In this document: piece by piece, positions 23,866-46,610 of the stretch | Numbering within the stretch: position 1 is the stretch's first letter | Layout of the letters: each line of letters starts with the position of its first letter | NCBI GenBank assembly: GCA_000002435.2 | Contig: CM018790.1 | DNA length: 64,000 nt | Reading direction: 5' to 3' (one strand) | Source of the DNA: Giardia intestinalis | Lineage: Eukaryota | Notes under the pieces: model-generated | Told to the model about the DNA's origin: nothing | Seen by the model: the letters and a program-made list of their open reading frames with translations, nothing else | The model's database searches: none | Made by a program: the position numbers and the translations under genes

Positions 23866-26800
23866 GTGGGTGCCGCTGGGGCCTGCCTGGAAGTATGATC
23901 CAAAGATCTCACAGGTAAGCCTCGCTCAGTCCCTGGCCAGCCCGGAGGCGGGGGCTGGCCACGGGTCGCAGTGATAGCCACAGTGGTGATAGGGAAGAGC
24001 TCCCTCCGTTTGTGGATCTGGGGCCTGTGCGTTCCTCGGCTGTTCTGCGGATGTGCACAGCTGGACTTGAGGCGAAGGAGAGCCCGCGAGGACCAGATCC
24101 GTATTACGAACGCAAGATCATACCTTTGGGCCCCAGAGAGCAAGCCGTGAGTCTCTACTCGGAGGACCACTTCGAAGACGCTTGCCCTCTCGGCAGGACA
24201 CACACGCTGGCTCTGTGGCCTGCCGTGCGAGAGCGCCAAGCAACCAACCGAGCACCTGAGAGAAGCAAACGATGACAGACACAGAGTGCTGGGCGACGAC
24301 AAGCTGATCCTTCCGGCCCACATACCGAACCAGACAGCTGCCATGCTCATCCACCAGGGTGCGCGCATGATCGCGAGCATCGAGCAGGCCGGGACTGGGG
24401 TCGCGCTCCCCGCAATCAGGGGCCTAGACGCCCTGGTGGGAAGCTGCCAGAGGGCCCCTCTGCCAGACAACACCACGGAGCAGTCCCAGAGCAAGGCAGA
24501 CCCAGACCCCGAGAAGGCGAGGCGCCGGATAGCAAACAGGGTGAACAACGCGCTGAGCTTTAATAGCTGCCAGGTCCTCTGTTCCTTGACACACCCACGA
24601 TAGACAAGCCAGAGAAGGCCAAGGCCCCCTCAGCGCGCTACACCCGTGCGTCCCCCCGAAGGCTGCGTTGGCCTTGACTACCCTCCATCGATGAACTCGA
24701 CAGGGCTGGAGTGGCAACCGAGGAGGAAATGAGGAAGGCCCTGTTTGGAACTCTCAACAAGAAGGCCTCGGGCGTGTCTGGTCTCGGGCCGGTCCAGCTC
24801 AGGCGATGAAGCAGAACGACAGCTTTGTGAAATACCTCACGCAGGCGTACAACGAGCTGACCACTCACCCCGAGGCGATACCCGAGGTGACGACCATGTT
24901 CGAGTTCCGGGCGATCCTCATCCCGAAGGAGTCCGACGGATACCCCCGATCGCGATAGGCGGACGGTCACGAACACCTTCCACCGCGTCCTGCTGAAGGG
25001 CTGATCAGGCATGCCAACTACCTCTCATGCGAGCAGATCGCCTTCAAGCAGAACGCATACGCGGTAGGCGTGAGGAGGGCCCACGAGCTCATCAGCGGGC
25101 GGGGATGCACGCCGTCTCCCTCGACACAAAGAACGCCCTCAACTCGCTCCCGAGGGCAGAGGTCGTCAGAGCCCTGAACGAGGCGGGCGTCCCGAAGGTC
25201 CTGGTCGACTACATCAGGAACTTCCTCGACCTGAGGCACAGCAAGGACGTGAAGTGCGAGGTCTGCGGCGTCCCCCAGGGCGACCCGCTCAGCACGTTCC
25301 TCTTCTGCATGGCCACCGAGCGCCTCCTGAGACGCCTCGAGGAGAGGGGCATCGCCTTCCTTGCCTATGCAGACGACATCGTGGGGTTCCACGACGAAGG
25401 GTACCCAGCAGGTGTGATAACACAGCAGACCATGGACCTGACGATCAGGAGCGACAAATGCAAGTCCACCATGGCGGGCGAGGAGGTGACCTTCCTCAAC
25501 CACCCGGCGTCCCCCACTCCTGCTAGTCTCGCCCCAAAGGCCATCGCAGGTGCCGAGACTGCCTTGAAGAAGATCGAGAATGCCCCAATAACCATCCACC
25601 AGAAGCTCATCCTGGTGTCACTCTGTGTGGTCCCGATGGTGAGCTACGCCCCCCTGGTCGAAGTAACATCGGACAAGGCGGACTACGAGGAGTTCGACAG
25701 ACGTCGCACAAGGCATCAGCACTAACCAACAGAAGCTGCGATCGCCTGGTCGACTTCCTAGCGTACCCGAAGGAGAAGGGCGGCCTGGACCTGCTCATGC
25801 CTGGATTCTACCACGACGAGCTGCGGAGGGTATGGGCCTCCTTGGACGTCAACAAGGGGGCCAGAGACCCGGTGGAGCTGTCGGTGGGCGGCCAGGCACT
25901 GCAGGGGAAGGGGCCTACTTCAACCGCCTCCTCACGCGCACACACCAGCTTCCGGACAGAGCGGCGACGTACTGTCTGCAGATGTGCGGCGTGCTGACCG
26001 AGGAGGAAAGGGCCCTGAAGGAGAAGGGCGGCTCGATCATGGCGCAGAAAGAGGCACCTGCCCGGGCTGCCACGAGGCACGACATGATCGTCGCGTGCCT
26101 GTACCTCCGCGTCTCGGGGAAGCTCAGCGCAGAGCTGGAAGTCAAGACCCACAGCCACCTCAGCGACCAGAACCAGAAGCCCGACATCTGGCTCGTCGAC
26201 AAGTGCAAGGCAGTGGACGTGGGTGTCATCCAGCCCCGCCAGATGGATACCACAGCGAGAAGGCCAAGAAGTACAGGGACGGGACGCTCCCGATCATCTA
26301 CGGGACGGACGGATCCCTCCACCCCAGTCCAAGGGGCACCTCAAGGAGCTCCACGTGGACCTCTGTCCGGGCTGCCTTCGCCATCGCCCACATGGCTGCA
26401 GAGGCGAACGAGCACCTGACGGGGCTGATCAGACGGGCCGGGCCGAAAGCCTGGCCACCCAGAGCGACCGTCTCCTGTCATCCTACTTCTGACAACCGAA
26501 TGAGTCCATCCCCGGGACCTGTCGACAACGACCGAGAAGGGGCGCAAGACTGGACACACAACCGAGTTGAATCCCAACCAGAAGAGAAAGCCCCGCTAGC
26601 TGCTGCTGATATACATGGACAGTATTGAGAATGACAACAAAGACCAGAGCTTCACCAACCGTAAAGGGAGAACAAGGAGAGGCACCCTAGTAGACCAGCG
26701 AGCCTGCAGGACGGCGTGATCTCCAAAAGGATCTATGTGCACTCTTAGACCGAGCACACACCCGCAGAACACCCGAGGAACGCAGATAGCTCCTCCCTTC

Positions 26801-26927
26801 CACCACTGTGGTCTTTATATTGATACACGACCAACCCTCGTCTCCGGACATCACCAAAAATTGAGCGGGAATTTACCAGTAAGATCTCTGGACAGCGCCC
26901 GCAGGCAGGCCCCAGCGGCACACCACA
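23866..26927 (+). mobile_element. Degenerate non-LTR retrotransposon, GilD/Genie 2-like, copy A. About 3.06 kb, flanked by ~170-bp terminal inverted repeats.
   Basis: It holds broken RT ORFs with YADD and GVPQGDPLSTFLF motifs (25027–25725). The ends are inverted repeats: the left end reads ccagtgggtgccgctggggcctgcctggaag.. and the right end reads ..caggcaggccccagcggcacaccac, with imperfect similarity extending about 170–200 bp inward. It is near-identical to the copies at 31772–34861 and 43534–46610. Confidence 0.8.
25027..25725 (+). pseudogene. Reverse-transcriptase fragment inside copy A. Frameshifted and degenerate.
   Basis: 232-aa ORF containing ..FLDLRHSKDVKCEVCGVPQGDPLSTFLFCMATERLLRRLEERGIAFLAYADDIVGFHDEGY... 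The flanking reading frames are broken. Confidence 0.75.
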
Positions 26928-27002
26928 CACTCAGTATACCTCTTTGGCAAAAGTATTCTTAATGATATCATTGGTGTTAAGACCGATTGCTCCGGAAATT
27001 CC

Positions 27003-29027
27003 TTGCTGCACAAGGCCGCTCTGGAGTGCAGTGGCCTTGAAGCTAAAGCGCTTAGCTCGTCACTAGCCTACCTTTGCCGATTACGCAATACTTCTGGAGA
27101 GACAGCCTTACAATTGGCGATAAAACATGGAAATTTGGAGCTCGCCAAACTTCTGATTGATGAGGAAGCAGGTAGCTATTCTGACACAAAAGAATCTGCA
27201 GTGGAGCTGGCCCTTCTTCGGGGTTCATGCGAAGTAGCCAGGCTATTAATTCCATTTGAAGGGAAGATACTTACTGAGCGGGGGTATACGCAGCTGATGT
27301 TAGCGGCTTCGTTTGGTGAGAGACGACTCGTTGAGAAGTACATCCAACGACAAGCAAAGAGGCAGGCAAAGAATGGGGTCACTGCGATGCATTTGGCCGT
27401 TATATCTGCAATCTCGCTTCATAAGTCTATCAAGCTTCTGCTGCAAGAAAGAGATCGCTTGGCAACTGACAGCGGCCACCTTATAGTAGAGGCAGAAGTT
27501 CCGCTGACCCACAGCTCTGTGACACCACGAAACACACGATCTCCACGGTCTATTAGTATCCTAACCAAGTCTTGCGGTAGGGGTGACTTGTTTGCGCAGA
27601 CAGCTGAAAAGGAATCAGCCTACTCTAGGCCACGTGTCACTTCGTCTAGACGCCCAATAACATCGGTACGATATCCAAGACAGACGCCGGCTCTATCTGC
27701 TAGTACACGTGTAGGAACACCAAAAAGCAGCTTCAGCTCACGAGGAGGCCAGCAAATATCTCCTAGCATTACCGTACCATCGATGCTATCCTCCTCTCCA
27801 AGAAAGAGGAGCGGAAGATGCGCGGCTTCGCGGTCTGGAGGCTCTAAAACATCTCCCATGGCGCGACCGCGCACAACCCAAATCACAGCCCAAAAGCTTC
27901 CTGCTGAAGTTACTAAGCACCGGGCCCAGAGCACGTACGGAACCCAGCTTGACGGGAGCATAAAGGTACCAGTGCTTCAGCTTGATAACCTGAGCGGAAA
28001 GCATGTGTCATTTCCAGATACTCTCAGGATAAAGGACGATGCCAGCGTTGTAGAGTGTAGAATTAGAAAGCTCAGATCTCTGTTTCAAGCCTTCGTCGAG
28101 ATTATCCTGCTCCTTATACCACTAGAAAAACAGATCTCCCAAAGGAATGGCCTCACGGTGCTCATGATAGCTGCGAAGGCTGATGTTGTAGAACTAGTTA
28201 GACTGCTTGTCAATGACGAGAAGTTGATGGTAGATGCACGCGGAGAGACTGCCTTGATGATAGCAGTTAGGAACAATGCAGCAGCATCTGTCAAAGGGCT
28301 GCTTAGCCACGAGGCAACCCGTGCATCTGCCAATCGTGAACGCTATACCGCATTGCACCTAGCAGTGCAAACGAATAACAGCATTCTTGTTGAGCAGCTA
28401 GCAACTCTAGAGAATAATATTCCACAGGCATGCTACACGTTAAAAGACTTTCCTAACAGCAGGAATGCGCACGCCTTGATCAACGTGACCGCCCTCATGA
28501 TGGCGTCTATCGGTAATGCTCCAGAATGCGCTCTGATTCTCTCCAGATACGAGGCCGGGCGCCACGAGCAGCTCTTCGGCTATACTGCGTTGATGCTTGC
28601 CGCATACTTCAATCACTCAGCCATTGTAGAGCTTCTTTTACATCCTGAATCGAGGGAGACTATGCGCAACGGCTGGACAGCGCTCATGGTTGCCAGCAGC
28701 AGAGGAAACCTTCGCTGCTGTGCTAAGCTGGCAACTTGCGAATCCAAGCTGACCGCTCAGGGGCTGACTGCGCTCATGCTAGCGTGCAAGCACAATTTCC
28801 TCAACATTGTGACGCTTCTCTATCCGCTCGAATCAAGCATCTATCACAAACGAGTAAGAAACGGGGTTGTGGAGCGTTGGTCCTGTTTAACATATGCGGC
28901 TGCAAAGGGGAGCACAGAGGTGGTAATGTTTCTCTTGGAACATCACCCCTCTCGAGAAGACATACGATTGGCTGCGAGCTGCTCACATAACCCAAAGATA
29001 TCAATCCTACTGTCAGCGCACCATTAA
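27003..29027 (+). CDS. Ankyrin-repeat protein (Giardia 'protein 21.1'-type) with a Ser/Thr-rich central linker. Appears 5'-truncated: no in-frame ATG near the ORF start.
   Basis: Ankyrin repeats are present (GETALQLAIKHGNLELAKLLID, TALMIAV.., TALHLAV.., TALMLAAYF..). The track start at 27003 is a TTG. The frame stays open back to a TAA at 26880–26882, inside the GilD copy A terminus, with no ATG. The first in-frame ATG sits inside an ankyrin 'QLMLAAS' motif at about codon 95. Confidence 0.6.
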   Translation: MLHKAALECSGLEAKALSSSLAYLCRLRNTSGETALQLAIKHGNLELAKLLIDEEAGSYSDTKESAVELALLRGSCEVARLLIPFEGKILTERGYTQLMLAASFGERRLVEKYIQRQAKRQAKNGVTAMHLAVISAISLHKSIKLLLQERDRLATDSGHLIVEAEVPLTHSSVTPRNTRSPRSISILTKSCGRGDLFAQTAEKESAYSRPRVTSSRRPITSVRYPRQTPALSASTRVGTPKSSFSSRGGQQISPSITVPSMLSSSPRKRSGRCAASRSGGSKTSPMARPRTTQITAQKLPAEVTKHRAQSTYGTQLDGSIKVPVLQLDNLSGKHVSFPDTLRIKDDASVVECRIRKLRSLFQAFVEIILLLIPLEKQISQRNGLTVLMIAAKADVVELVRLLVNDEKLMVDARGETALMIAVRNNAAASVKGLLSHEATRASANRERYTALHLAVQTNNSILVEQLATLENNIPQACYTLKDFPNSRNAHALINVTALMMASIGNAPECALILSRYEAGRHEQLFGYTALMLAAYFNHSAIVELLLHPESRETMRNGWTALMVASSRGNLRCCAKLATCESKLTAQGLTALMLACKHNFLNIVTLLYPLESSIYHKRVRNGVVERWSCLTYAAAKGSTEVVMFLLEHHPSREDIRLAASCSHNPKISILLSAHH

Positions 29028-29583
29028 TAGGAATGGAATGTGTAATATACTGTAGTGAGAGGGCATTGGCTAAGGTTGACTCGCCGCTACCCTAGGTAAC
29101 AAACATTTTGGTAGACAGTTATCTTTGCGTGATCGTCTTAGAGGCGTTAAGAAGGCTCGAAAAACGACTGAGATTCTCATTAAGAAGGAGCATTCTAGTT
29201 TGTAAGCGTTTCAACAATAAGTTCTCACAGGTAATAATGGCCACTTGTAATTAGAACGACAGGAGATGCGTTGTGGAGCTAGTAGGGATTCGGTGTATTG
29301 TGCATTGTGACATTGCTTGTGCTCTGCTATTTTTGTTAAAGCTTCAGTTGATTGCATCCCTCCTATCGTATTTACTAGAGCATACTCTGTACATTGGATA
29401 GGCCCCATTTTGCTGATTAGACAGTAGCTAGTAGTAGGGGCAGATGCATGTCAAAGACGATGCCCGAACTATTGACTGAGCACAGGAGAGCCGTCAACTA
29501 ATAAGTGCAGAAGCAGTTCACACTCTCCTGGCACAGACAGCCATCCGAGAACTTCCTGGCTGCTACACGAACTAGTACATTAT

Positions 29584-31479
29584 TCACTCAGAAAGGATCT
29601 CAATAATCTCCTCGTATATCAACTCATTAGCAATGTCGAGAGCCGTAGTACCAGCCTCGAATCCAATAAACTCGCGGGTGGATCTTAAGTCCTTTTCCCT
29701 ATCCTTAAGGAGTCTCACACACCCTGGCTCCCTGTTACACACTGCCCACATAAGGGCTGTCCATCCATATTTATCCGTCCTCTTTGTTTCCTGAATATTC
29801 CTTCTAACTGCTCCAACATCTCCAATGCAAGCAGCGCACATAAGGTTTGTCCAGCCCGAGGCATCACGCTCGCTCTTGTGCTCACAGAGCAATCTGACAC
29901 AGTCTGTATGGCCTTCCTCTGCTGCAAACATGAGGGCTGTCGAACCATCACTCTTCTGCATGCCCCCCTCCTTCTCTAGCAATAGTTTAACACAGTCTTG
30001 GTGGCCGTTCTGCGCTGCAAACATGAGGGCGGTCTTACCATCGCTATCCTTCATGCGCGCCTCTTTCTCTAGAAGCAGCTTGACGCACTCTGTGCGGCCG
30101 TTCTGTGCTGCCCACATGAGGGCTGTATATCCCCTGCCATCATGCACACCCGCTTGCTGAAGGTTACTCCTAACCGCATCAGCATCTCCAATGCAAGCAG
30201 CGCACATAAGGTTTGTCCAGCCCGAGGCATCACGCTCGCTCTTGTGCTCACAGAGCAATCTGACACAGTCTGTATGGCCTTCCTCTGCTGCAAACATGAG
30301 GGCTGTCGAACCATCACTCTTCTGCATGCCCCCCTCCTTCTCTAGCAATAGTTTAACACAGTCTTGGTGGCCGTTCTGCGCTGCAAACATGAGGGCGGTC
30401 TTACCATCGCTATCCTTCATGCGCGCCTCTTTCTCTAGAAGCAGCTTGACGCACTCTGTGCGGCCGTTCTGTGCTGCCCACATGAGAGCCGTCTTGTCAT
30501 TGCTATCCTTCATGCCCTCCTCCTTCTCCAGGAGCAGTCTGGCGCACTCTGTGCGGCCGTTCTGCGCTGCAAACATGAGAGCCGTCTTATGGTTGTTGTC
30601 ATATTTGCCACCCTCGCGACTAACTAGCAGTCGCACTACATCCGCATGGCCGTATTCCGCTGCTGTCATTAGAGCCGTCCCTCCGGTCATGCGCCATCTG
30701 TCTATCTTAACACCCCCTTCCGCTTTCTTTCTCTCTTGAAGGGGTAGCAATTCCATCATCTCTGCATCTGTATCTCCATTCTCTGCCGCATTCACGAGGG
30801 ATCTCCTCTGCATGCCACCCTCTTTCTCTAACAGTAGCTTGACACACTCCGCATGTCCACGCAGTGCTGCCATCATGAGGGCTGTCCATCCATCAGGCCT
30901 CTGCATACCCTCTTCTTTGTCAAGTAGAAGCTTAAGGCATTCTACGTGCCCATTCCTTGCTGTAGACATGAGGGCTGTTTCCCCGGCTCCGTCCTTCATC
31001 CCCCCTTGAATTGGTACAAGCAGCCTTACCATTTCAGTGTCTCCCCTGGCTGCTGCCCGCATGAGTGCTGTGACTCCATTCCTATCTGTTGGATCCTCGT
31101 AGGATATAATTACCCTAGTAACCTCTAGGCGCCCGTCGTTGAGAGCATGACGCAGGGCGCTATGATCTTGATCACCCTTCACATCCTTCCCGCGCTCCAG
31201 GACGGACTTTATCGCCTCTATGGGACTATACCCCGCCACCCACATGAGAGCTGTTTGACCATGGTTGTCCTGTCTACAGATTAGATTAAACCTAGTACCC
31301 AGTAACCCCTTGACATCTTCCGTACCATCCTTAGCGGTCTGCATGAGCTCGGTCACACCACCTGAGGGGCTCGGGGGGCCGCCAGATTCAACACGCCTGC
31401 GATCAACATCGCTCTGTGCCATTTTTATTTTCTCTCCTGGCCAAGTGCAATTTTCATTTTCTCTCCTGGCCAAGTGCAT
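29584..31479 (-). CDS. Ankyrin-repeat protein (21.1-type) with an internal, perfectly duplicated 103-aa block.
   Basis: More than 15 ankyrin repeats (TALMWAAQNGRTECVKLLLEKE...). The alternative and more AT-rich start is MAQSDVD.. at 31422 (aaaataaaaATGgca). The 3' end lies about 560 bp from the neighbouring gene. Confidence 0.8.
   Translation of the reverse strand: MHLARRENENCTWPGEKIKMAQSDVDRRRVESGGPPSPSGGVTELMQTAKDGTEDVKGLLGTRFNLICRQDNHGQTALMWVAGYSPIEAIKSVLERGKDVKGDQDHSALRHALNDGRLEVTRVIISYEDPTDRNGVTALMRAAARGDTEMVRLLVPIQGGMKDGAGETALMSTARNGHVECLKLLLDKEEGMQRPDGWTALMMAALRGHAECVKLLLEKEGGMQRRSLVNAAENGDTDAEMMELLPLQERKKAEGGVKIDRWRMTGGTALMTAAEYGHADVVRLLVSREGGKYDNNHKTALMFAAQNGRTECARLLLEKEEGMKDSNDKTALMWAAQNGRTECVKLLLEKEARMKDSDGKTALMFAAQNGHQDCVKLLLEKEGGMQKSDGSTALMFAAEEGHTDCVRLLCEHKSERDASGWTNLMCAACIGDADAVRSNLQQAGVHDGRGYTALMWAAQNGRTECVKLLLEKEARMKDSDGKTALMFAAQNGHQDCVKLLLEKEGGMQKSDGSTALMFAAEEGHTDCVRLLCEHKSERDASGWTNLMCAACIGDVGAVRRNIQETKRTDKYGWTALMWAVCNREPGCVRLLKDREKDLRSTREFIGFEAGTTALDIANELIYEEIIEILSE
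29817..30491. repeat. Two identical 309-bp segments, 29817–30125 and 30183–30491, at a 366-bp period, inside the ankyrin CDS.
   Basis: Six-frame ORF pairs are identical at both positions (29825../30191.., 29715../30069..). The nucleotide strings from 'catctccaatgcaagcagcgcacataagg' to 'gctgcccacatgag' match exactly. Confidence 0.85.
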
Positions 31480-31771
31480 AAGACCGCAATTATTTCGTAA
31501 TTTACACTACCCAAGCTACGATGCACTACAGCTATATGGCATAGGCTCCTGCATATTTTCTGTTGCATGCCGTAATGGTGTAGTGTGCAGTACTACACTA
31601 CTCCGGGCTGTTACCGACCAGAGCTCGCCGAGTAGACCAGTCGTCTGAGGCAGAGGCGGACACTTATGTAGGGACCGAGGGCCTTCTGCTCTACAGATGG
31701 ATGGCTATGAGACGCGGCATATCGCCTGCTCGTTGGTAGGGGCTTCTCGACGGCAGGGAACGCTGCTTTCA

Positions 31772-34700
31772 GTGGTGTGCCGCTGGGGCCTGCCTGCGGG
31801 CGCTGTCCAGAGATCTTACTGGTAAATTCCCGCTCAATTTTTGGTGATGTCCGGAGACGAGGGTTGGTCGTGTATCAATATAAAGACCACAGTGGTGGAA
31901 GGGAGGAGCTATCTGCGTTCCTCGGGTGTTCTGCGGGTGTGTGCTCGGTCTAAGAGTGCACATAGATCCTTTTGGAGATCACGCCGTCCTGCAGGCTCGC
32001 TGGTCTACTAGGGTGCCTCTCCTTGTTCTCCCTTTACGGTTGGTGAAGCTCTGGTCTTTGTTGTCATTCTCAATGCTGTCCATACAGATCGGCAGCAGCT
32101 AGCGGGGCTTTCTCTTCTGGTTGGGATTCAACTCGGTTGTGTGTCCAGTCTTTGCCCCTTCTCGGTCGTTGTCGTCGGGTCCCAGGGATGGACTCATTCG
32201 GTTGTCAGAAGTAGGATGACAGGAGGCGGGGTGACCAGGCTTTCGGCCCGGCCCGTCTGATCAGCCCCGTCAGGTCCTCGTTCGCCTCTGCAGCCATGTA
32301 GGCGATGGCGAAGGCAGCCCGGACAGAGGTCCACGTGGAGCTCCTTGAGGTGCCCCTTGGACTGGGGTGGAGGGATCCGTCCGTCCCGTAGATGATCGGG
32401 AGCGTCCCGTCCCTGTACTTCTTGGCCTTCTCGCTGTGGTATCCATCTGGCGGGGCTGGATGACACCCACGTCCACTGCCTTGCACTTGTCGACGAGCCA
32501 GATGTCGGGCTTCTGGTTCTGGTCGCTGAGGTGGCTGTGGGTCTTGACTTCCAGCTCTGCGCTGAGCTTCCCCGAGACGCGGAGGTACAGGCACGCGACG
32601 ATCATGTCGTGCCTCGTGGCAGCCCGGGCAGGTGCCTCTTTCTGCGCCATGATCGAGCCGCCCTTCTCCTTCAGGGCCCTTTCCTCCTCGGTCAGCACGC
32701 CGCACATCTGCAGACAGTACGTCGCCGCTCTGTCCGGAAGCTGGTGTGTGCGCGTGAGGAGGCGGTTGAAGTAGGCCCCTTCCCCTGCAGTGCCTGGCCG
32801 CCCACCGACAGCTCCACCGGGTCTCTGGCCCCCTTGTTGACGTCCAAGGAGGCCCATACCCTCCGCAGCTCGTCGTGGTAGAATCCAGGCATGAGCAGGT
32901 CCAGGCCGCCCTTCTCCTTCGGGTACGCTAGGAAGTCGACCAGGCGATCGCAGCTTCTGTTGGTTAGTGCTGATGCCTTGTGCGACGTCTGTCGAACTCC
33001 TCGTAGTCCGCCTTGTCCGATGTTACTTCGACCAGGGGGGCGTAGCTCACCATCGGGACCACACAGAGTGACACCAGGATGAGCTTCTGGTGGATGGTTA
33101 TTGGGGCATTCTCGATCTTCTTCAAGGCAGTCTCGGCACCTGCGATGGCCTTTGGGGCGAGACTAGCAGGAGTGGGGGACGCCGGGTGGTTGAGGAAGGT
33201 CACCTCCTCGCCCGCCATGGTGGACTTGCATTTGTCGCTCCTGATCGTCAGGTCCATGGTCTGCTGTGTTATCACACCTGCTGGGTACCCTTCGTCGTGG
33301 AACCCCACGATGTCGTCTGCATAGGCAAGGAAGGCGATGCCCCTCTCCTCGAGGCGTCTCAGGAGGCGCTCGGTGGCCATGCAGAAGAGGAACGTGCTGA
33401 GCGGGTCGCCCTGGGGGACGCCGCAGACCTCGCACTTCACGTCCTTGCTGTGCCTCAGGTCGAGGAAGTTCCTGATGTAGTCGACCAGGACCTTCGGGAC
33501 GCCCGCCTCGTTCAGGGCTCTGACGACCTCTGCCCTCGGGAGCGAGTTGAGGGCGTTCTTTGTGTCGAGGGAGACGGCGTGCATCCCCGCCCGCTGATGA
33601 GCTCGTGGGCCCTCCTCACGCCTACCGCGTATGCGTTCTGCTTGAAGGCGATCTGCTCGCATGAGAGGTAGTTGGCATGCCTGATCAGCCCTTCAGCAGG
33701 ACGCGGTGGAAGATGTTCGTGACCGTCCGCCTATCGCGATCGGGGGTATCCGTCGGACTCCTTCGGGATGAGGATCGCCCGGAACTCGAACATGGTCGTC
33801 ACCTCGGGTATCGCCTCGGGGTGAGTGGTCAGCTCGTTGTACGCCTGCGTGAGGTATTTCACAAAGCTGTCGTTCTGCTTCATCGCCTGAGCTGGACCGG
33901 CCCGAGACCAGACACGCCCGAGGCCTTCTTGTTGAGAGTTCCAAACAGGGCCTTCCTCATTTCCTCCTCGGTTGCCACTCCAGCCCTGTCGAGTTCATCG
34001 ATGGAGGGTAGTCAAGGCCAACGCAGCCTTCGGGGGGACGCACGGGTGTAGCGCGCTGAGGGGGCCTTGGCCTTCTCTGGCTTGTCTATCGTGGGTGTGT
34101 CAAGGAACAGAGGACCTGGCAGCCATTAAAGCTCAGCGCGTTGTTCACCCTGTTTGCTATCCGGCGCCTCGCCTTCTCGGGGTCTGGGTCTGCCTTGCTC
34201 TGGGACTGCTCCGTGGTGTTGTCTGGCAGAGGGGCCCTCTGGCAGCTTCCCACCAGGGCGTCTAGGCCCCTGATTGCGGGGAGCGCGACCCCAGTCCCGG
34301 CCTGCTCGATGCTCGCGATCATGCGCGCACCCTGGTGGATGAGCATGGCAGCTGTCTGGTTCGGTATGTGGGCCGGAAGGATCAGCTTGTCGTCGCCCAG
34401 CACTCTGTGTCTGTCATCGTTTGCTTCTCTCAGGTGCTCGGTTGGTTGCTTGGCGCTCTCGCACGGCAGGCCACAGAGCCAGCGTGTGTGTCCTGCCGAG
34501 AGGGCAAGCGTCTTCGAAGTGGTCCTCCGAGTAGAGACTCACGGCTTGCTCTCTGGGGCCCAAAGGTATGATCTTGCGTTCGTAATACGGATCTGGTCCT
34601 CGCGGGCTCTCCTTCGCCTCAAGTCCAGCTGTGCACATCCGCAGAACAGCCGAGGAACGCACAGGCCCCAGATCCACAAACGGAGGGAGCTCTTCCCTAT

Positions 34701-34861
34701 CACCACTGTGGCTATCACTGCGACCCGTGGCCAGCCCCCGCCTCCGGGCTGGCCAGGGACTGAGCGAGGCTTACCTGTGAGATCTTTGGATCATACTTCC
34801 AGGCAGGCCCCAGCGGCACACCACTGGAAGCAACCGGTGGGTGGAGTAAAGAAACTGGTAG
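31772..34861 (-). mobile_element. GilD/Genie 2-like degenerate retrotransposon, copy B, in inverted orientation. About 3.09 kb.
   Basis: Its ORF set mirrors copy A (RT fragment 32964–33662 on the minus strand, identical 232 aa). Termini are cagtggtgtgccgctggggcctgcc at 31772 and its reverse complement at about 34840. It shares the extended 5' terminus 'tttactccacccaccggttgcttccagtgg' with copy C. Confidence 0.8.
32964..33662 (-). pseudogene. RT fragment of copy B, identical in protein to 25027–25725.
   Basis: Identical 232-aa translation with the YADD motif. Confidence 0.75.
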
Positions 34862-35141
34862 AATAATCCGAAGTGCGGATTGCATTTAGAAGGATTGCCG
34901 CCCGCACCTCGTGCTTCTGAGACCACAGATAAGCAAGGACTGTTCTCTGCGGTGGCTTAAAAAGCCTATCTATCATATCAGAGGGCAGCTCGCCATACCT
35001 CGTGATGAACAGCGGAAGGACCTTGTCCCTTTGGTCTGCCGGATACCTTGATCCCAGTGCTACGGCTCCCTGAAAATCTACGAGGTTAAGCGCATTGTAG
35101 AGACTCTCTGCCAGCTCGCCTATGGGGGTCAGAACAGGCAT
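34862..35141 (-). pseudogene. Alpha-giardin (annexin-like) N-terminal fragment of about 93 codons. It ends exactly at the GilD copy B boundary.
   Basis: MPVLTPIGELAESLYNALNLVDFQGAVALGSRYPADQRDKVLPLFITRYGELPSDMIDRLFKPPQRTVLAYLWSQKHEVRAAILLNAIRTSDYSTSFF.. parallels alpha-1 giardin as I recall it (MPKVTDIANELKQAIDAKDE..YGKELPDDIKKALKGG..SDRHEVRAQHIRDALSGRNDHMAFF). Homology stops at the element terminus near 34861. The rest of the gene is absent. Confidence 0.6.
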
Positions 35142-35192: not shown

Positions 35193-36097
35193 TTAGTTTG
35201 CGCCTTCGGTGTCAACACGCCAAAGTGCACAAAGAGCTCGCCCGAGACGGGCGTCGTAGAGGCGCTTAAAGTCTGAGCCGAGCTTGCCGTACTTTTCATA
35301 CGCAAACTTACACTTTAATGCCTTGTCGAACATAAGAGAGGTGATGCGAACCATCCGGTCACTATCGCCCTTTTTGCCAGAGTTGGCGAGGGAGCATAGG
35401 TAGGCAGCGGCATAGCCGGGCTGTAGCAGGTAGAAGTGGGCGGTAAGCAGGGCCTCCATGTCTGTCTTCACGTAGTTGGACGCAATAAGGGTCTCCACCT
35501 CGACGCCGTACTTCTCTGTGAACACCTTATTTATCTTTTTCCACTCTCCCTCTGTGGTGTTGCACAGGAGATCGATCAGGCCATCGGGGTTGCCAGATTC
35601 CAAGTAGCCCATGAGCGCCGCGGCATCCTCACTAATAGCCTTGCGCTCGTATCTGTCGTGTTTGATCCACCCCTTGATGAGTTGCGACCACGGCTCAGAG
35701 CTGCCGATATCACTGAGCAGGGTGTCGTTGGCCACTTTCTGAAATATGCGCGTGTAGTGTGCTCCCATCTCGTACCAGTCTTCTGGGCCGCAAAAGAGGA
35801 CGACGTCTATCAGTGCAGACTTGTTGTTCTTGCCACTGAGGGCCTGGTTGAGTAGGCGTGCACGCACCTCCTGTGCATCTGTCCACGCATACATCAGAAG
35901 CGTTTCAGCAGGCCCTGACTTTAGAGCTTTCTTGATTGCATCAGCAGGGTACATCCCATAGATGGACTTGTAGTTGATTACGACTTGTCTCGGTGCTTCG
36001 ACGCATACTGCGAGGTCAACTGGACAAGAGCGGACTCGTTTTTGCTATCTATAATCTCCCTCAGCTCCGTGGTGAGGTCGGATACAGTGAGGGACAT
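35193..36097 (-). CDS. Alpha-giardin (annexin homologue) with an apparent single-nucleotide frameshift near 35990 to 36000.
   Basis: The body (35193–35954) has alpha-giardin hallmarks ([19 protein letters not shown].., [60 protein letters not shown]). The N-terminus (ATG 36097: [39 protein letters not shown]) is in a different frame and stops. The two segments join into one alpha-giardin if one base is added or removed. Confidence 0.7.
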
Positions 36098-37017
36098 CAG
36101 GTCTAGAGTGAATTTTTGACTGTTTCACTTTGATTTAATGAAAAGGGTTCACAAAAGGATTTTAAAGCGGGCGTTATGAGCGCGAAAGTCGTAAGTATCT
36201 GTGTACAGGTCGGAAAGGTGAACACAGGTTACGATCAGAAAGCGTCGCTCCGTTGCTTCGCTGCTCCGCCGCCCATATCTTACGGTGTGCACAGAATCAA
36301 ATTATTGCCAGGAGAAGGTCTAGATTGCGTTGGCTTTCTTTCTCAGTGGGGGCTGTGCCTCGTAGCTCCTGGCCCGGGGTCAAGGCTGTCTCTATGACGC
36401 TGTCGAAGCAGATGTGGTCTTCTAGGCACCATAAGTAATCTTCGTGCACAAACAGGTCCTCCCCGGCCGGAGAGGCGCTGCTTGGGAGCAAAATGTGCGG
36501 CTGATATGTTGTGCCAGCCATGATTGGTTTGTAATTCTCCGTCCACATTAGTTTTTATGTCATTACTTTTTACTTTTGCATAAAGCAGCAGCTTATTGCA
36601 GCATCAGTAGTCTTGCGCCAATTACATACTAGATTATAGCGTGCTTTTTCATACGTTAGGCATACTTTTGGGCTGCAAGTTAATTGCTGGGCTTAAAGGT
36701 TGACAATGCCAATTTGTGCACCAGATCAGATTGTACTGTGTTCTTGCTTGACAACTGGTCTAATTGTGACTCAAGCAGGGCGTGCCTTATTGCTTCAATC
36801 CGTGGATTTATATTCTTGAATTCATAAAGAGATTCCCTGCACCACAATGCCACACATGAATAGTTGTAACCAGGCAGTGTCGACCCTATCCAACCCCATC
36901 GTTGGCAGTTACCAGTTCAGCAGACTCTTGTGGCTGCTTAGCTTCAAAATTTACAGAGTCTAACAGCAATATGGATGCTCAGGGTTTGTGTTCAACTATC
37001 AAAACAGCGCTAACCCT

Positions 37018-39447: not shown

Positions 39448-39501
39448 TTGACAACCCTGTTTTTTAATAAGTTCGTTAGTAAAATTGGACAAAGGTGTGG
39501 A

Positions 39502-42500
39502 ATGGAACATCTATCCATCAGGTTCCGTGGTGTTTGCGCAGACACCACGGAAGCACCCATACCCACCAACAAGATTAAGACCCGGAAGTACAATTGGATT
39601 GTTTTTCCCTTTGTTGCTGTCCTCAAACAGTTCCGGCTTTTCTTCAACCAGTTTTTCTTGGTTCTAGCCTTTCTCCAGCTCTATCGCCCTCTTCAAGTTG
39701 GCCTCGCCTTTACATACTACCTTCCTCTATGTTTCATTGTCCTAGTCAGTGTTGGGCGCGAATTGTATGATGAGCTGAATCGAGCAAGACGTGACAAGTC
39801 AGTCAATAGTGGCAAGTACAATATCATTGGCCCCTATGGACTCGTTCCTACTAAGTCCGAAGACATTAAGGTTGGAAGCATCGTGCTTCTAGAGCCAAAT
39901 CAGAGGGTTCCCGCGGACATCGTTATCCTCCAAGCCGTGGGTCATTTGTATGTCAAGACAGTCAATCTGGATGGGGAAACAGATCTAAAGGTCAAGATGC
40001 CTTTGCTTGGTACTGTCGATAGCCCAGAAACACTGGCAGCACCGGACCTGCTCTCTGCAATCCTTGATTCCATCCACGTTACCTATGCCAAGCCATCGGA
40101 TAATCTCTATCACTTTTCCGGGGCTCTTCAAAACGCACAAACTGACGTTGTAATTGGACCCATTACAGTTTCTAATGCAATCTGGATGAATTGCAGTCTT
40201 GCGCGCGGATACGCAACGGGATTGGTTGTCTACACAGGGAAGAGCACACGCATTATGCAGAACCTTGGACGGCGACGGGTTAAACAAGGGTCTCTCGATG
40301 TTGAGCTGAACATGTTTGTCAAGGGCATGTTCATTTTCTGTCTGCTCCTGTCAGCGCTGGTTACATTTGCCACCACAACCAGAAGTATTATCGTCTTTGT
40401 TCGTTGGATCATAATCCTCAGCTCGATTATTCCGTTGGCCATGCAGGTTTCCTATAACTTCGGCAAGCTCGTCATGGCCGGAAGTATTAAGCGGGACGAC
40501 ACCATAAGTGGGATTGAGGTCAGATCAACCGATCTAGCTGAAGAGCTGGGCCGCATTAGCCATGTCTTCAGCGACAAAACAGGGACTCTGACACGGAACG
40601 AGATGTGGCTCCATGAGGTTGTTGGAGAAAAAAGCCCAGCTTGTCTGTCCACGTATTTGATAATTACGCTAGCGAATTGCAGCGCATCGTCCTCTTTGCA
40701 ATCATGACATGTCACAACGTCGAGTTGTTCCGCGAGGATCAGGATTCACCAGAGCAAGATACCGCCCTCAGGCCAAGAAGGAGGAGGCAGCCAAGGACTT
40801 GCTCAGCAAGCACTAGTCAATCATCTGAACAGAGAGTGTCTCAGGAGCCAACTAGCTTTCTCGACGCAAGCATCTCTGAGGCCATCGGGCTCGAAGATCG
40901 ATCTCAGCCTGTGCAGACGCTCTCACTTTCCGATTCACCAACAGAATTGCTCTTTACGCGCCGCGAGATTGACGAAAATCTGATCCTTAATCGATATATT
41001 GGCTCATCTCCCGACGAGGTTGCAATAATAAGAAGCATGCATGCGCGGGGCTATATACTGGAAGAAAAGTCACATAATCTTGTACGCTACACTGCTAGTA
41101 CAGGATCTCAAAAGTTTGAGCTTCTTCATACCTTTCCATTTACATCAGAGACCAAGCGCATGTCTGTCGTCACTCACCACATTGCTACCGGAACCACGTT
41201 TATTTTCGTTAAGGGAGCAGACACAACTATTGAGGCGTCTGCCAAGTACTGTCCATGGCTTCGAAACACCGTCGATGCTTTGGCAGGGCTGGGGCGGAGG
41301 ACCCTCGTGTATGCGTACCGCACGCTCGACGATGACGACCTTAGTAATTTTCATTCATCCATTACTGCTGCGTCTGCAGATCTGGCAAACCGAGATTCCA
41401 TACTCGTGAAATGCGAAGAGACTCTGCTGACAGGGGTGGAGGTCTTGTGTGTAACAGGAATCGAAGATCAGCTCCAGCTCAATGTGAAGGCAACGATCCA
41501 GGATCTGAAAAGAGCAGGAATTAAGTTCTGGATGTTGACCGGAGACAAGGTTGTGACATGTTTGAGCATAGCCCAGTCGTGCGGTTTGCTCCCAAATACA
41601 GCAGTCAAGAAGCATACCAGCAAGCTTCGTGCATCCGAGAATACCGCGCCTTTGACTACTCAGTCGCTGCATCCTGAGGCATGTAAGTATCCAACTACTC
41701 CATCTCTAGACGCTGTATCTATTCCTACAAGATCTGAGATAGAAGTGGGCCAAGAGGATAAGACACCCATGGCAATTCTCCGCAGAGCCATTCGAGATGA
41801 TCCCAATTCCTTCATGAGTGTCACCTCCAGAAGAGAAAAGCGGCTCAATAGAAAGAAACGCCCAGGGTCTCTTGTTTTAGCAAGCACGTGCTATGGGCGC
41901 TTGAGTGAGCATATCTACTTCTTGACAGAGGAGCTCACCCCTGTTGAAATAGTCTCCGTTCTGAAAGAGCTCTCTCAAATGGTTAGCTTCACACATGAGG
42001 TTACCATCGTCATAGACGGATCAGCGCTGGAGAAACTCCTCGGTAATTACCCCGTGGACTACTTCTACACACATGCAATCCATCCCATCACTGGGAACCT
42101 TCTTCCTCTGCACCCGTGTGTAAGGATCTGGAGGAGATTCACCCGCTGGTTACTTATCTACCTCACAGGACACCCCAGACGCGGCAAGGGGAGCCTGGGA
42201 CCAGATGCAGAGACGCGCGAGCTTTTTGCAAGTATTGCTAGCAAGGCAGAAACGGTCCTCTGCTGCCGCTGCACACCAACGCAGAAGGCCCTTGTTGCAG
42301 GTCTCATTTCGGTATACACAGGCAGCAAATCCCTAGGGATAGGCGACGGGGCAAATGACGTCCCCCTGATCGAAACTTGCTCTGTCGGCATAGGACTGCG
42401 GGGCAAGGAGGGCAACCAGGCGGCCAACGCAGCAGACTATGTGATGACAGAATTCCGAGGACTGAAGAAGCTTCTGCTATGGTATGGCAAGTGTAGCTAC

Positions 42501-43526
42501 GTGGGTAGTGCACAGATATGCCAGTTTATCGTCCAGCGCGGGGTTGCGCTATGCTTGCTCCAGATTTGTTTCACCTGCCTTTACTTTTTCACGTCTCTCG
42601 TTCTTCACACCGGGGTACTCCTCTTGGGATACGTGACGCTATTCACAATGTTTCCACCGTTCAACTATTATATTAACGAAGATGTGGACTACCAATTAGT
42701 ACTAAAATACCCAGAAATCTATCGGATTACGTCGCGTGGATCTATTCTGAACCTTAAGACATTTTTTCTCTGGACATTTAGTGGCTTTATTATAGCAGTG
42801 GTAGTGTTTCTTCTCGCATATATCTTCTCGTCGTTTCCCATTTCTGTCAGCGGATTTACGTTTTTCAGTTTCGCCATACTGCTGTGGAGCGAGCTCTGCC
42901 TGATCCTTGTGACTACCCATCGCTTTTCCCTTATGCTCCTCGTTGCCTTGCTTCTCAGCTACTTGATGCTATTCTTGGTTGTTGCCATTTATCCAGGCTC
43001 CTTGACTCGTAGCGAAGTATTTTCTCTAGATATGTTTTGGCGCTTATGCGTAACAAACGCAATATCGGCTGTACTGCTTTTTGTCGGTGAACGCATCGTT
43101 CGCCGGTTCTCTAAGCCAAACGTGGTCCGTATTCTCAGATCAATGAGAAAGCCAGTTTATTGTGCTACATGCAAAGTTCCACGGTGTTGCACGCGTGAGT
43201 CGCAACAGAATGTGGCTGTCATAGGCAAGCCTTCTTTCAACCAAGACCATCCTGGCCTATCTCGCAGCGTCTTACGAGATCGAAGTAAGCCCATGTATAG
43301 AGCAGGCTCTGGGATAAAAACGGAATCCGAATCTGGCTCGGGGTGGCCCTCTGGTATGGTAGTGACGAGCAGATCCTACAGGCGACCCTCTTCATCGAGC
43401 TATGTCCGTCTGCGAGGCATTTACATTCTAAGCTCCACTGGGAGACACTTCTTCAATATGCCGGAGAGTGTTTTCAACATCCTCACACTCAGGATGTGTC
43501 GTCGTTGCGTCAGAATAAATTCTTAG
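39502..43526 (+). CDS. P4-type ATPase (phospholipid flippase). The reading frame is interrupted by a +1/−1 shift at an A6 run near 40626 to 40633.
   Basis: PTNKIKTRKYNWIVFPF.. matches the P4 N-terminal signature. DKTGTLTRNEM is the phosphorylation site. Also present are TGDKVVTCLSIAQSCGLL and GDGANDVPLIE..ADYVMTEFRGLKKLLLWYGKCSY, the P4 'FRxLxxLLLVHG' box. Track ORFs 39448–40707 (frame 1) and 40641–43526 (frame 0) overlap at the homopolymer. The first ATG is at 39502. Confidence 0.8.
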
Positions 43527-43533
43527 ATTCGGA

Positions 43534-46500
43534 TTTACTCCACCCACCGGTTGCTTCCAGTGGTGTGCCGCTGGGGCCTGCCTGGAAGTATGATCCAAAG
43601 ATCTCACAGGTAAGCCTCGCTCAGTCCCTGGCCAGCCCGGAGGCGGGGGCTGGCCACGGGTCGCAGTGATAGCCACAGTGGTGATAGGGAAGAGCTCCCT
43701 CCGTTTGTGGATCTGGGGCCTGTGCGTTCCTCGGCTGTTCTGCGGATGTGCACAGCTGGACTTGAGGCGAAGGAGAGCCCGCGAGGACCAGATCCGTATT
43801 ACGAACGCAAGATCATACCTTTGGGCCCCAGAGAGCAAGCCGTGAGTCTCTACTCGGAGGACCACTTCGAAGACGCTTGCCCTCTCGGCAGGACACACAC
43901 GCTGGCTCTGTGGCCTGCCGTGCGAGAGCGCCAAGCAACCAACCGAGCACCTGAGAGAAGCAAACGATGACAGACACAGAGTGCTGGGCGACGACAAGCT
44001 GATCCTTCCGGCCCACATACCGAACCAGACAGCTGCCATGCTCATCCACCAGGGTGCGCGCATGATCGCGAGCATCGAGCAGGCCGGGACTGGGGTCGCG
44101 CTCCCCGCAATCAGGGGCCTAGACGCCCTGGTGGGAAGCTGCCAGAGGGCCCCTCTGCCAGACAACACCACGGAGCAGTCCCAGAGCAAGGCAGACCCAG
44201 ACCCCGAGAAGGCGAGGCGCCGGATAGCAAACAGGGTGAACAACGCGCTGAGCTTTAATGGCTGCCAGGTCCTCTGTTCCTTGACACACCCACGATAGAC
44301 AAGCCAGAGAAGGCCAAGGCCCCCTCAGCGCGCTACACCCGTGCGTCCCCCCGAAGGCTGCGTTGGCCTTGACTACCCTCCATCGATGAACTCGACAGGG
44401 CTGGAGTGGCAACCGAGGAGGAAATGAGGAAGGCCCTGTTTGGAACTCTCAACAAGAAGGCCTCGGGCGTGTCTGGTCTCGGGCCGGTCCAGCTCAGGCG
44501 ATGAAGCAGAACGACAGCTTTGTGAAATACCTCACGCAGGCGTACAACGAGCTGACCACTCACCCCGAGGCGATACCCGAGGTGACGACCATGTTCGAGT
44601 TCCGGGCGATCCTCATCCCGAAGGAGTCCGACGGATACCCCCGATCGCGATAGGCGGACGGTCACGAACATCTTCCACCGCGTCCTGCTGAAGGGCTGAT
44701 CAGGCATGCCAACTACCTCTCATGCGAGCAGATCGCCTTCAAGCAGAACGCATACGCGGTAGGCGTGAGGAGGGCCCACGAGCTCATCAGCGGGCGGGGA
44801 TGCACGCCGTCTCCCTCGACACAAAGAACGCCCTCAACTCGCTCCCGAGGGCAGAGGTCGTCAGAGCCCTGAACGAGGCGGGCGTCCCGAAGGTCCTGGT
44901 CGACTACATCAGGAACTTCCTCGACCTGAGGCACAGCAAGGACGTGAAGTGCGAGGTCTGCGGCGTCCCCCAGGGCGACCCGCTCAGCACGTTCCTCTTC
45001 TGCATGGCCACCGAGCGCCTCCTGAGACGCCTCGAGGAGAGGGGCATCGCCTTCCTTGCCTATGCAGACGACATCGTGGGGTTCCACGACGAAGGGTACC
45101 CAGCAGGTGTGATAACACAGCAGACCATGGACCTGACGATCAGGAGCGACAAATGCAAGTCCACCATGGCGGGCGAGGAGGTGACCTTCCTCAACCACCC
45201 GGCGTCCCCCACTCCTGCTAGTCTCGCCCCAAAGGCCATCGCAGGTGCCGAGACTGCCTTGAAGAAGATCGAGAATGCCCCAATAACCATCCACCAGAAG
45301 CTCATCCTGGTGTCACTCTGTGTGGTCCCGATGGTGAGCTACGCCCCCCTGGTCGAAGTAACATCGGACAAGGCGGACTACGAGGAGTTCGACAGACGTC
45401 GCACAAGGCATCAGCACTAACCAACAGAAGCTGCGATCGCCTGGTCGACTTCCTAGCGTACCCGAAGGAGAAGGGCGGCCTGGACCTGCTCATGCCTGGA
45501 TTCTACCACGACGAGCTGCGGAGGGTATGGGCCTCCTTGGACGTCAACAAGGGGGCCAGAGACCCGGTGGAGCTGTCGGTGGGCGGCCAGGCACTGCAGG
45601 GGAAGGGGCCTACTTCAACCGCCTCCTCACGCGCACACACCAGCTTCCGGACAGAGCGGCGACGTACTGTCTGCAGATGTGCGGCGTGCTGACCGAGGAG
45701 GAAAGGGCCCTGAAGGAGAAGGGCGGCTCGATCATGGCGCAGAAAGAGGCACCTGCCCGGGCTGCCACGAGGCACGACATGATCGTCGCGTGCCTGTACC
45801 TCCGCGTCTCGGGGAAGCTCAGCGCAGAGCTGGAAGTCAAGACCCACAGCCACCTCAGCGACCAGAACCAGAAGCCCGACATCTGGCTCGTCGACAAGTG
45901 CAAGGCAGTGGACGTGGGTGTCATCCAGCCCCGCCAGATGGATACCACAGCGAGAAGGCCAAGAAGTACAGGGACGGGACGCTCCCGATCATCTACGGGA
46001 CGGACGGATCCCTCCACCCCAGTCCAAGGGGCACCTCAAGGAGCTCCACGTGGACCTCTGTCCGGGCTGCCTTCGCCATCGCCTACATGGCTGCAGAGGC
46101 GAACGAGGACCTGACGGGGCTGATCAGACGGGCCGGGCCGAAAGCCTGGTCACCCCGCCTCCTGTCATCCTACTTCTGACAACCGAATGAGTCCATCCCT
46201 GGGACCCGACGACAACGACCGAGAAGGGGCAAAGACTGGACACACAATCGAGTTGAATCCCAACCAGAAGAGAAAGCCCGCTAGCTGCTGCCGATCTGTA
46301 TGGACAGCATTGAGAATGACAACAAAGACCAGAGCTTCACCAACCGTAAAGGGAGAACAAGGAGAGGCACCCTAGTAGACCAGCGAGCCTGCAGGACGGC
46401 GTGATCTCCAAAAGGACCGATGTGCACACCCAGTCTGAGTGTACTCCTGTAGAATAGCCGAGGAACGCAATAGCTTCTCCCTACAACCGATGTGATTATC

Positions 46501-46610
46501 GTTACGGCCCGTGACCAACCCTCGTCTCCGGACATCGCCAAAAATTGAGCGGGAATTTACTCGCGAGATTTGCGGACAGCGCCCGCAGGCGAGGGCCCAG
46601 CGGCACACAC
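43534..46610 (+). mobile_element. GilD/Genie 2-like degenerate retrotransposon, copy C. About 3.08 kb. It starts 8 bp after the flippase stop codon.
   Basis: Its ORF set is identical to A and B (RT fragment 44722–45420). It sits at a constant 19,695-bp offset from copy A. Its right terminus (..gcgagggcccagcggcacaca) is more diverged than the others. Confidence 0.8.
44722..45420 (+). pseudogene. RT fragment of copy C.
   Basis: Identical 232-aa translation with YADD. Confidence 0.75.

Follow-up and report, generated by a model that had tools for sequence, protein, structure and literature searches.

How do three copies of a transposable element come to be nearly identical when all of them are broken in the same way? 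The question is raised by a 64,000-nt stretch of DNA (the window) from contig CM018790.1 of assembly GCA_000002435.2, which lies near the end of a 1.54-Mb chromosome of the Giardia intestinalis WB C6 reference. Proteins encoded in the window match the WB C6 GenBank entries KAE8302548, KAE8302550, and KAE8302557 exactly, and the VSP and alpha-giardin domains found in the window agree with Giardia intestinalis (lamblia) as the host. A first-pass annotation, made from the letters alone, had recognized three dead GilD/Genie 2 copies and ascribed their spread to segmental duplication or gene conversion. Our analysis suggests that they are probably three old inactive GilD/Genie 2 insertions made near-identical by ectopic gene conversion together with crossover.

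Three copies of one degenerate element

The window holds one degenerate reverse transcriptase (RT) element in three copies of 3.07 to 3.09 kb, A, B, and C, whose boundaries we refined by comparison with a full-length copy found in isolate DH. Copy A (23863..26930, + strand) is short at both termini, starting near CAGTGG at its 5′ end and stopping at ...GGCACACCACACAC at its 3′ end, and its alignment with DH copy L005, which is full length, spans positions 30-3105 of the latter at 86.7%. Copy B (31764..34856, − strand) is a mosaic with a complete canonical 5′ terminus at 34856 (GTTTC-TTTACTCCACCC...), and of the terminal extension at its 3′ end about 10 nt survive. Copy C (~43529/43534..46611, + strand) likewise has the canonical 5′ terminus. 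The spacer between the inverted copies A and B (26931..31763) measures 4.83 kb and that between B and C 8.67 kb, and A and C lie 19,695 nt apart from start to start, matching the 4.8-kb inverted and 19.7-kb direct spacings first annotated.

The same annotation had warned of a hazard for assembly, and for the inner junctions of A and B this worry is answered by an independent contig. A metagenome-derived contig of 4,860 nt from another isolate (L014) spans the whole A-B spacer plus 55 nt into both inverted 3′ arms and is 98.6-99.8% identical over 26872-31826. That the trio is an assembly artefact, with one or two real copies placed three times or homogenized in polishing, is hardly credible, even though 3-kb repeats at 99-100% identity are a known hazard and a frameshift in a neighboring gene is possibly a consensus error. 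Besides that contig, unique flanks on both sides of each copy, the substitutions and indels private to each copy, and the approximately 200x PacBio reads and optical maps from which the WB reference was built (Xu et al. 2020, PMC7000408) speak against it.

The longest RT ORF remnant of copy A (25027..25725, + strand) encodes 232 amino acids with a YADD motif and matches Pfam RVT_1 (E 4e-16), the only Pfam domain found in the element ORFs; its equivalents lie at 32964-33662 (− strand) in B and 44722-45420 (+ strand) in C. All best matches of the RT ORFs are Giardia RT or RT/endonuclease fragments, the nearest named proteins being WB XP_001705781 and XP_001705782 ("Reverse transcriptase/endonuclease") at 84-88% identity. 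The remnant of A is also 33% identical to residues 503-704 of a GilM-type RT (E 5e-28) encoded elsewhere in the window. A motif resembling the PD-D/E-x-K site of R2, KPDIWLVDKCKAVDVGV...K..KY, is visible in the ORF at 25832-26419 and in protein P0014; in an endonuclease search of GilD, neither the GilM ORF nor any solved R2 protein came up as a significant match.

The first pass noticed shared lesions, and these hold up. In A and C alike, the RT similarity to the intact GilM-type ORF passes through frames 3, 2, 1, 3, and 1, and A, B, and C have 21 identical frameshifting indels in common when compared with the family consensus. Window copies carry 21-24 such indels and each DH copy its own set of 14-16, counts that are approximate in absolute terms, as the five-copy consensus itself has no intact ORF. 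The window copies show one lesion set and four DH copies, at 86-89% identity with gaps counted, show different ones, which upholds the earlier argument for autonomous retrotransposition: the likeness is due to processes at the DNA level instead.

Mosaic structure of the copies

Pairwise identity with gaps excluded is 99.51% for A-B (15 mismatches, 3 gap events), 98.36% for A-C, and 98.86% for B-C, so that the copies are near-identical as claimed (98.4-99.5%, with no pair below 90%). The four independent DH copies, compared with the window copies or with one another, reach 86-89% with gaps counted and 92-94% over aligned positions. Identity within the trio is unevenly distributed. Copies B and C are 100% identical for 2,746 nt from the 5′ end (32105-34850 versus 43534-46279), while in the last 197 nt B equals A and C is only ~78% identical to either; counted along the B-C alignment, there are 0 mismatches in ~2,850 aligned nt and then 42 in 196 (Fisher p 1e-52). 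The 3′ arm of C (~200 nt) is instead 91% identical to DH copy L017, against 78% to A and B. B and C had been proposed as the most recent pair, which is correct for the 5′ 2.75 kb and fails for the last 197 nt. The variants said to unite them are real, the H-to-Y and H-to-D differences from A being substitutions at 26389 and 26413; the extra 30 bp at their 5′ end is not a private feature, as described below.

Reticulation extends beyond the window. Deletions of 18/19 nt, 59 nt, and 11 nt are each common to A, B, and C and to a different single DH copy, a pattern that violates the four-gamete test across the GilD family. Deletion sharing in the family is therefore reticulate, indicating family-wide recombination. 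A short direct repeat borders the 59-nt deletion, which may have recurred independently, and one of these comparisons is weakened accordingly.

Inverted termini

The claim of terminal inverted repeats of about 170 bp holds, with imperfect arms alignable over 144-162 nt at 70-74%. In copy A, the 5′ arm (23866..24010, + strand) aligns with the 3′ arm (26779..26926, + strand) over 154 nt at 72%. The 3′ arm of B (31764..31919, − strand) pairs with its 5′ arm (34679..34832, − strand) over 162 nt at 73.5%, with 97% complementarity in the terminal 33 nt; the canonical extension at 34833-34856 lies outside the pairable part. In copy C, where the extension at 43534-43558 precedes the 5′ arm (43559..43696, + strand), the alignment covers 144 nt at 70%, and the 3′ arm (46472..46611, + strand) has a sequence of the canonical type seen in DH. 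Over the outermost 25-32 nt the match is perfect in B and, but for one 1-nt gap, in A; in C it is broken by one mismatch and two gaps. Inverted repeats of the DH copies measure 173-213 nt at 88-94%, and the 5′ arm of the window subfamily is unusually diverged, being 68-72% identical to DH 5′ arms compared with 92-94% in the body.

The 23-29 nt by which B and C extend further at the 5′ end are the canonical element terminus, which is also present in DH L005 (both ends), DH L004 (3′ end), and the assemblage-B copy L016 (3′ end), so its retention in B and C is ancestral and not a shared derived trait. At the 3′ end, A, B, and C differ from one another and all lack the canonical terminal ~30 nt. 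The terminal 22-mer GTGTGCCGCTGGGGCCTGCCTG occurs five times in the window with up to three mismatches, always at copy ends, and never in shuffled sequences; no solo terminal repeat was found in the window by this search. The first-pass annotation had raised the existence of the repeat apart from the RT core, and outside the window a metagenome scan with the canonical terminal 19-mer gave two loci, both free of GilD homology and set aside as chance matches. DH copy L004 carries a ~27-nt 5′ truncation and lies between the two halves of a perfect target-site duplication of 17 bp, TCTACAGTCAAACCATA, which indicates that the inverted repeats move with the element.

A terminal hairpin (CCACCGG-TTGCTT-CCGGTGG) was considered as a functional feature and discarded, its signal being modest in canonical copies (z −2.25) and not kept in B and C (z −0.48). 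No palindromic flanks surround A, B, or C. In DH, L017 contains a 382-nt perfect palindrome that reaches the contig end, possibly an assembly artefact.

Flanks and neighboring genes

Homology stops at the element ends, all six flanks of A, B, and C are unrelated, and the three 5′ junction sequences are different. Nine pairings of 5′ and 3′ flanks yielded no target-site duplication for the three copies, only chance 8-9-mers, and self-comparison of the window revealed no other long repeat adjoining them.

The copies had been described as arranged around intact genes, a description that has to be abandoned. A truncated "Ankyrin repeat protein 1" paralogue (26931..29027, + strand) starts exactly where copy A ends on its 3′ side and retains codons 256-953 of a 953-codon paralogue, 698 codons from its 3′ part. 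An annexin (alpha-giardin) fragment (34857..35141, − strand) comprises the first 95 of 345 codons and breaks off precisely where copy B has its 5′ terminus; the missing halves of both genes are not in the window. Beside copy C, the flippase gene is split, with a stop codon (43524..43526, + strand) 1-7 nt before the 5′ terminus of the element, and an alpha-9 giardin copy near the elements is frameshifted. Duplicated, truncated paralogues are frequent in this region as a whole. Co-copying of the ankyrin fragment with copy A, suggested by paralogue homology that ends at the stop codon, was rejected on finding neither a poly(A) tract nor a duplication.

Origin of the near-identity

Identity confined to the repeat, incongruence of the mosaic along its length, and unrelated flanks together form the signature of conversion. 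Unrelated flanks and mosaic copies therefore support gene conversion or ectopic recombination and not segmental duplication, so that only the former half of the alternative first proposed stands. In the mechanism we propose, GilD/Genie 2 would once have inserted by target-primed reverse transcription, its ~170-210-nt inverted repeats moving with it. Copies already in place would then have undergone conversion and crossover, by which most of each was overwritten with one already-broken sequence, while the outermost ends and C's 3′ end stayed in an older state. Flanks would have been exchanged as well, placing the copies at breakpoints beside truncated gene fragments. We infer from this pattern that A, B, and C go back to three separate insertions, and likewise in which direction and order conversion proceeded. 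No reciprocal crossover product was seen in the window; the missing gene halves are expected beside another GilD copy outside it.

Recent retrotransposition in trans, in which one dead master was transcribed and inserted three times by the RT of another element, has a slim chance of being the explanation. Such insertion would leave identical bodies with different 5′ junctions, like the variable 5′ ends of target-primed reverse transcription, and homology ending at the element ends, and the window offers an example of a possible donor in the intact GilM-type element, with its RT ORF of 1,109 amino acids at 59154-62483. This donor RT is only 33% identical at the protein level, however, and its element has no 3′ sequence in common with GilD. 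Nor do the copies have target-site duplications, and their 3′ ends, which should be constant and complete, differ. The last ~200 nt of C, ~22% diverged from A and B, match another lineage, so that recombination is needed anyway, and A and B are flanked by non-contiguous fragments of genes. Differing 5′ junctions on identical bodies are a point against conversion in their own right, since one master RNA inserted repeatedly by target priming would be expected to give the same picture. Duplication of a chromosomal segment carrying one dead copy, once inverted and once direct, would fit a region rich in truncated paralogues and a WB genome of which 6.9% is reported as duplicated (PMC7000408), but judged from the sequence this appears already largely refuted, with a very slim chance of being right: outside the element termini, no flank of the six (0/6) is common to any two copies, no other long repeat adjoins them, and the mosaic pattern would be left unexplained.

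Significance

Conversion among old insertions would make this a small and clean case of a long-dead transposon family in concerted evolution, with a bearing on how chromosome ends are reshuffled in a polyploid, apparently asexual parasite. A broader idea, which we consider rather unlikely, is that dead GilD copies act throughout Giardia as portable homology, repeatedly driving ectopic recombination and being homogenized by the same process. If so, GilD copies would seed the breakpoints of segmental duplications at chromosome ends, such as those marked by the truncated ankyrin and annexin fragments, and fold-back at the inverted repeats would seed palindromic gene pairs around "RT remnants". 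VSP pairs with RT remnants have been noted (Xu et al. 2020, PMC7000408), and at the DH locus L003 we found an inverted VSP pair centered on a GilD copy. GilD would in that case be no inert debris but a structural driver of change in the surface-antigen repertoire.

The practical use lies in annotation and assembly of the Giardia reference. Repeats of 3 kb at 98-100% identity, both inverted and direct, can mediate inversion of the 4.8-kb or 8.7-kb spacer or a 19.7-kb deletion, and the copies flag places where neighboring "genes" are truncated paralogues. The observation is real and largely ordinary, and it reveals no new kind of element or mechanism.

Comparison with known systems

The element was reportedly described in Giardia lamblia as GilD by Arkhipova and Morrison in 2001 and as Genie 2 by Burke, Malik, Rich, and Eickbush in 2002. 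It is said to be ~3 kb long, with an RT of non-LTR type, inverted repeats of up to ~172 bp, no fixed insertion site, and only degenerate copies. As first annotated, A, B, and C fit this family in host, RT type, decay, inverted repeats (144-162 nt here), and size (~3.1 kb here), which makes the element an already known one; the family name rests on this match of features. Each of the three window copies has its own flanks, as does each DH copy for which flanks were read, indicating insertion that is not site-specific. Nothing essential sets the window copies apart from the description; local peculiarities are the diverged 5′ arm and the likeness of the trio, 98.4-99.5% with B and C identical across the body, against ~87% for independent copies.

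GilM/Genie 1, a telomere-associated element present in the same window (57024-64000), shares with GilD a homologous RT (33% over ~200 residues), the host, and the chromosome-end neighborhood. It differs in its intact ORF, in head-to-tail tandem arrays with a 5,476-nt period, and in having neither terminal inverted repeats nor nucleotide similarity to GilD. DIRS-like and some Penelope-like elements also place an RT-bearing unit between inverted repeats, whereas GilD has no tyrosine recombinase or GIY-YIG domain in Pfam searches, which gave RVT_1 only, its RT groups with Giardia R2-like non-LTR elements, and one DH copy has the 17-bp duplication. A cut-and-paste DNA transposon, suggested by the inverted repeats, was dismissed on RVT_1 as the sole domain and on window copies that lack target-site duplications.

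Ectopic gene conversion underlies the concerted evolution of yeast Ty elements, human Alu and L1 copies, and subtelomeric gene families. The window resembles these systems in identity confined to the repeat, mosaic copies, exchanged flanks, and truncated genes at breakpoints. It differs from them in that no reciprocal products were seen, the family is fully dead, and the host is a polyploid, apparently asexual protist.

Results

Repeat finding and a three-way alignment confirmed that three near-identical GilD/Genie 2 copies lie in the window, and a full-length copy of isolate DH served to fix their boundaries: A (23863-26930, + strand), B (31764-34856, - strand) and C (~43529-46611, + strand). 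Scoring of percent identity, a check proposed by the first-pass annotation that had reported the copies, gave 99.5% for A-B, 98.4% for A-C and 98.9% for B-C, and the three-copy observation holds, far above what chance would give, under a name that fits the features of the copies. Their longest ORF (232 aa) carries an RVT_1 domain in Pfam, and its database relatives are exclusively Giardia reverse transcriptase (RT) fragments, the best with 85% identity at 92% coverage and a shorter one with 97% identity over half of the query. An endonuclease domain is expected for this lineage; a candidate motif for it is visible by eye only, and searches against the GilM ORF and solved R2 proteins gave no significant match.

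The copies are broken in the same way, as had been claimed. RT homology to the intact protein of the GilM type (GilM/Genie 1, a telomere-associated non-LTR element) is broken over frames 3, 2, 1, 3 and 1, alike in A and C, and 21 frameshifting indels relative to the family consensus are identical in A, B and C, with two more in B and C and a third in C. We compared them with four independent GilD copies from isolate DH (assemblage AII; L003, L004, L005 and L017). Their identity to the window copies, or among themselves, is 86-89% with gaps counted (92-94% at aligned positions), and each has a different lesion set. Given the common lesions of A, B and C and the private set of each DH copy, the window copies derive from a single, already-broken ancestor sequence.

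Inverted termini were also borne out on each copy, albeit imperfect (144-162 nt alignable at 70-74%); in A and B the match is perfect over the outermost 25-32 nt, and the terminal 22-mer occurs five times in the window, always at copy ends, and 0 times in shuffles. The inverted repeats of the DH copies are far better, with 173-213 nt at 88-94%. A further terminal stretch, 5'-(GTTCG)TTTACTCCACCCACCGGTTGCTTCCGGTGG..., with its complement at the 3' end, is present at both ends of L005 and at the 3' end of L004, and an assemblage B copy has the same 3' terminus. This canonical terminus accounts for the "extra 30 bp" previously ascribed to B and C, which is neither flank nor a novelty common to the two. 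A perfect 17-bp target-site duplication encloses L004, whose 5' end is truncated by ~27 nt, so the unit bearing inverted repeats once moved in the way of target-primed reverse transcription. A functional role for a small hairpin within the terminus was rejected, as the hairpin is weakly supported and not retained in B and C. The 5' arms of A, B and C (23866-24010, 34679-34832 and 43559-43696) are 68-72% identical to the DH 5' arms, vs 92-94% for the bodies. Several changes in the 3' arm of A and B are matched in the 5' arm of the same copy, a hint of homogenisation between arms.

Relationships shift along the element. From the 5' end, B and C show 0 mismatches in ~2850 aligned nt followed by 42 over the final 196 nt (Fisher p 1e-52), a stretch over which A equals B, and the 3' arm of C is 91% identical to L017 and only 78% to A/B. 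The outermost 5' bases differ as well (GTTTC-TTTACTCC in B, ATTCGGATTTACTCC in C), and the next 2746 nt are identical. Three unambiguous deletions (18/19, 59 and 11 nt) are each common to A, B and C and a different single DH copy, violating the four-gamete test. Recombination among GilD copies appears to be family-wide; the 59-nt deletion, which has a short repeat at its flanks, might have recurred independently.

All six flanks of the copies are unrelated, homology ends at the element termini, and no target-site duplication was found in any flank pairing. Genes around the copies had been described as intact, which is wrong: the ankyrin gene right of A retains only codons 256-953 of a 953-codon protein, cut exactly at the element end, with a full-length paralogue on the 4.0-Mb chromosome, and an annexin gene is cut after codon 95 by the 5' terminus of B. 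The missing halves of both genes are absent from the window.

Other genes nearby are also altered. Like the ankyrin fragment (26931-29027, +), an unrelated gene at 17411-22366 (+) is a truncated paralogue, at ~98% identity in both cases, of a gene that the 4.0-Mb chromosome carries. Both start at residue 256 of the full-length counterpart, probably a coincidence. A remnant of a NEK kinase (23024-23260, +; N-terminal 79 residues) lies ~600 nt left of A, with 61% identity to the kinase at 53329-56346. An alpha-9 giardin copy (35196-36097, -) departs from the annotated 301-aa protein by a frameshift at about codon 38; many short-read contigs (L006-L013) carry the same frameshifted version and run from it into an intact annexin gene, not into B. 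Copy C begins 1-7 nt past the stop codon of a phospholipid-transporting P-type ATPase gene (39448-43526, +), whose reading frame is broken into two overlapping parts (39448-40707 and 40641-43526), through a genuine frameshift or an error in the consensus.

GenBank proteins of Giardia intestinalis WB clone C6 (GCA_000002435.2, 1,539,535-bp chromosome) match six window ORFs exactly, including dynein heavy chain KAE8302548, GL50803_00113673, NSF and an RT/endonuclease, and Pfam domains indicate a variant-specific surface protein (VSP), NEK/ankyrin kinases, an annexin-type alpha-giardin and an NSF-type ATPase. A VSP gene (49983-52796, -) holds at least 15 tandem 111-nt (37-aa) repeats within 50740-52600 at 94-100% identity. 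At the right window end (57024-64000) lies a head-to-tail array of the GilM/Genie 1 type (57024-58524 equals 62501-64000 at 99.87%) with an intact 1109-aa RT ORF (59154-62483, -), whose closest solved structure is an R2 retrotransposon protein. Its period of 5476-5477 nt agrees with the 5,474-bp GilM unit described for the same assembly (PMC7000408). Directly left of it is an isolated LSU rRNA fragment (56438-56796, +; model positions 1891-2388 of Rfam RF02543), which fits a location at a chromosome end, and together they place the region in a chromosome-end neighbourhood.

Discussion

The mosaic copies, the homology that ends at element termini and the discontinuous gene-fragment flanks point to an origin of the near-identity of A, B and C in ectopic gene conversion and crossover between copies that already existed. 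Crossover between two dispersed copies would yield mismatched flanks and a switch of parentage near one end, and a conversion tract unable to reach the extreme end would leave differing outermost 5' bases in B and C. The mechanism first proposed, segmental duplication or gene conversion, was thus half right: conversion stands, and duplication of a block carrying a copy fails because no flank is common to any copies. Repeated mobilisation of a dead master copy in trans would likewise produce identical bodies with different 5' junctions, but it leaves unexplained the variable, incomplete 3' ends, the absent target-site duplications, the non-contiguous flanks and the foreign 3' end of C. An assembly artefact is unlikely: flanks on both sides are unique to each copy, as are some sequence differences, and the whole A-B spacer is covered, at 98.6-99.8% identity, by an independent contig of 4860 nt from a different isolate, which runs from 55 nt inside the 3' arm of A to 55 nt inside that of B. 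Which way round the spacer lies with respect to the sequence beyond the copies is not readable from that contig.

GilD, reportedly described by Arkhipova and Morrison in 2001, and Genie 2, by Burke and colleagues in 2002, are said to form a dead family of ~3 kb that lacks site specificity, encodes an RT of the non-LTR type and has inverted repeats of up to 172 bp. The features of A, B and C fit these accounts, and the earlier naming holds as a match by description. Knowledge of this family, with its unusual inverted repeats, goes back more than 20 years, and the sequence comes from the published reference genome; what is modestly new is the clear mosaic, flank-exchange signature of the copies, with a hint that GilD copies are located at rearrangement breakpoints and palindrome centres. 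In isolate DH, the GilD copy of L017 (AHGT01000133.1) has inverted arms of 382 nt at 100% (1-382 and 3362-3743), comprising the terminal repeat and 310 nt of flank and reaching the contig end, which represent either a true palindrome or a fold-back assembly artefact. In L003 (AHGT01000066.1), a degenerate palindrome, with arms (1750-2140 and 7918-8307) that carry inverted VSP genes, 82-88% complementary, is centred almost exactly on GilD (3449-6520), an arrangement reminiscent of the "reverse transcriptase remnant between VSP pairs" remarked by Xu et al. 2020.
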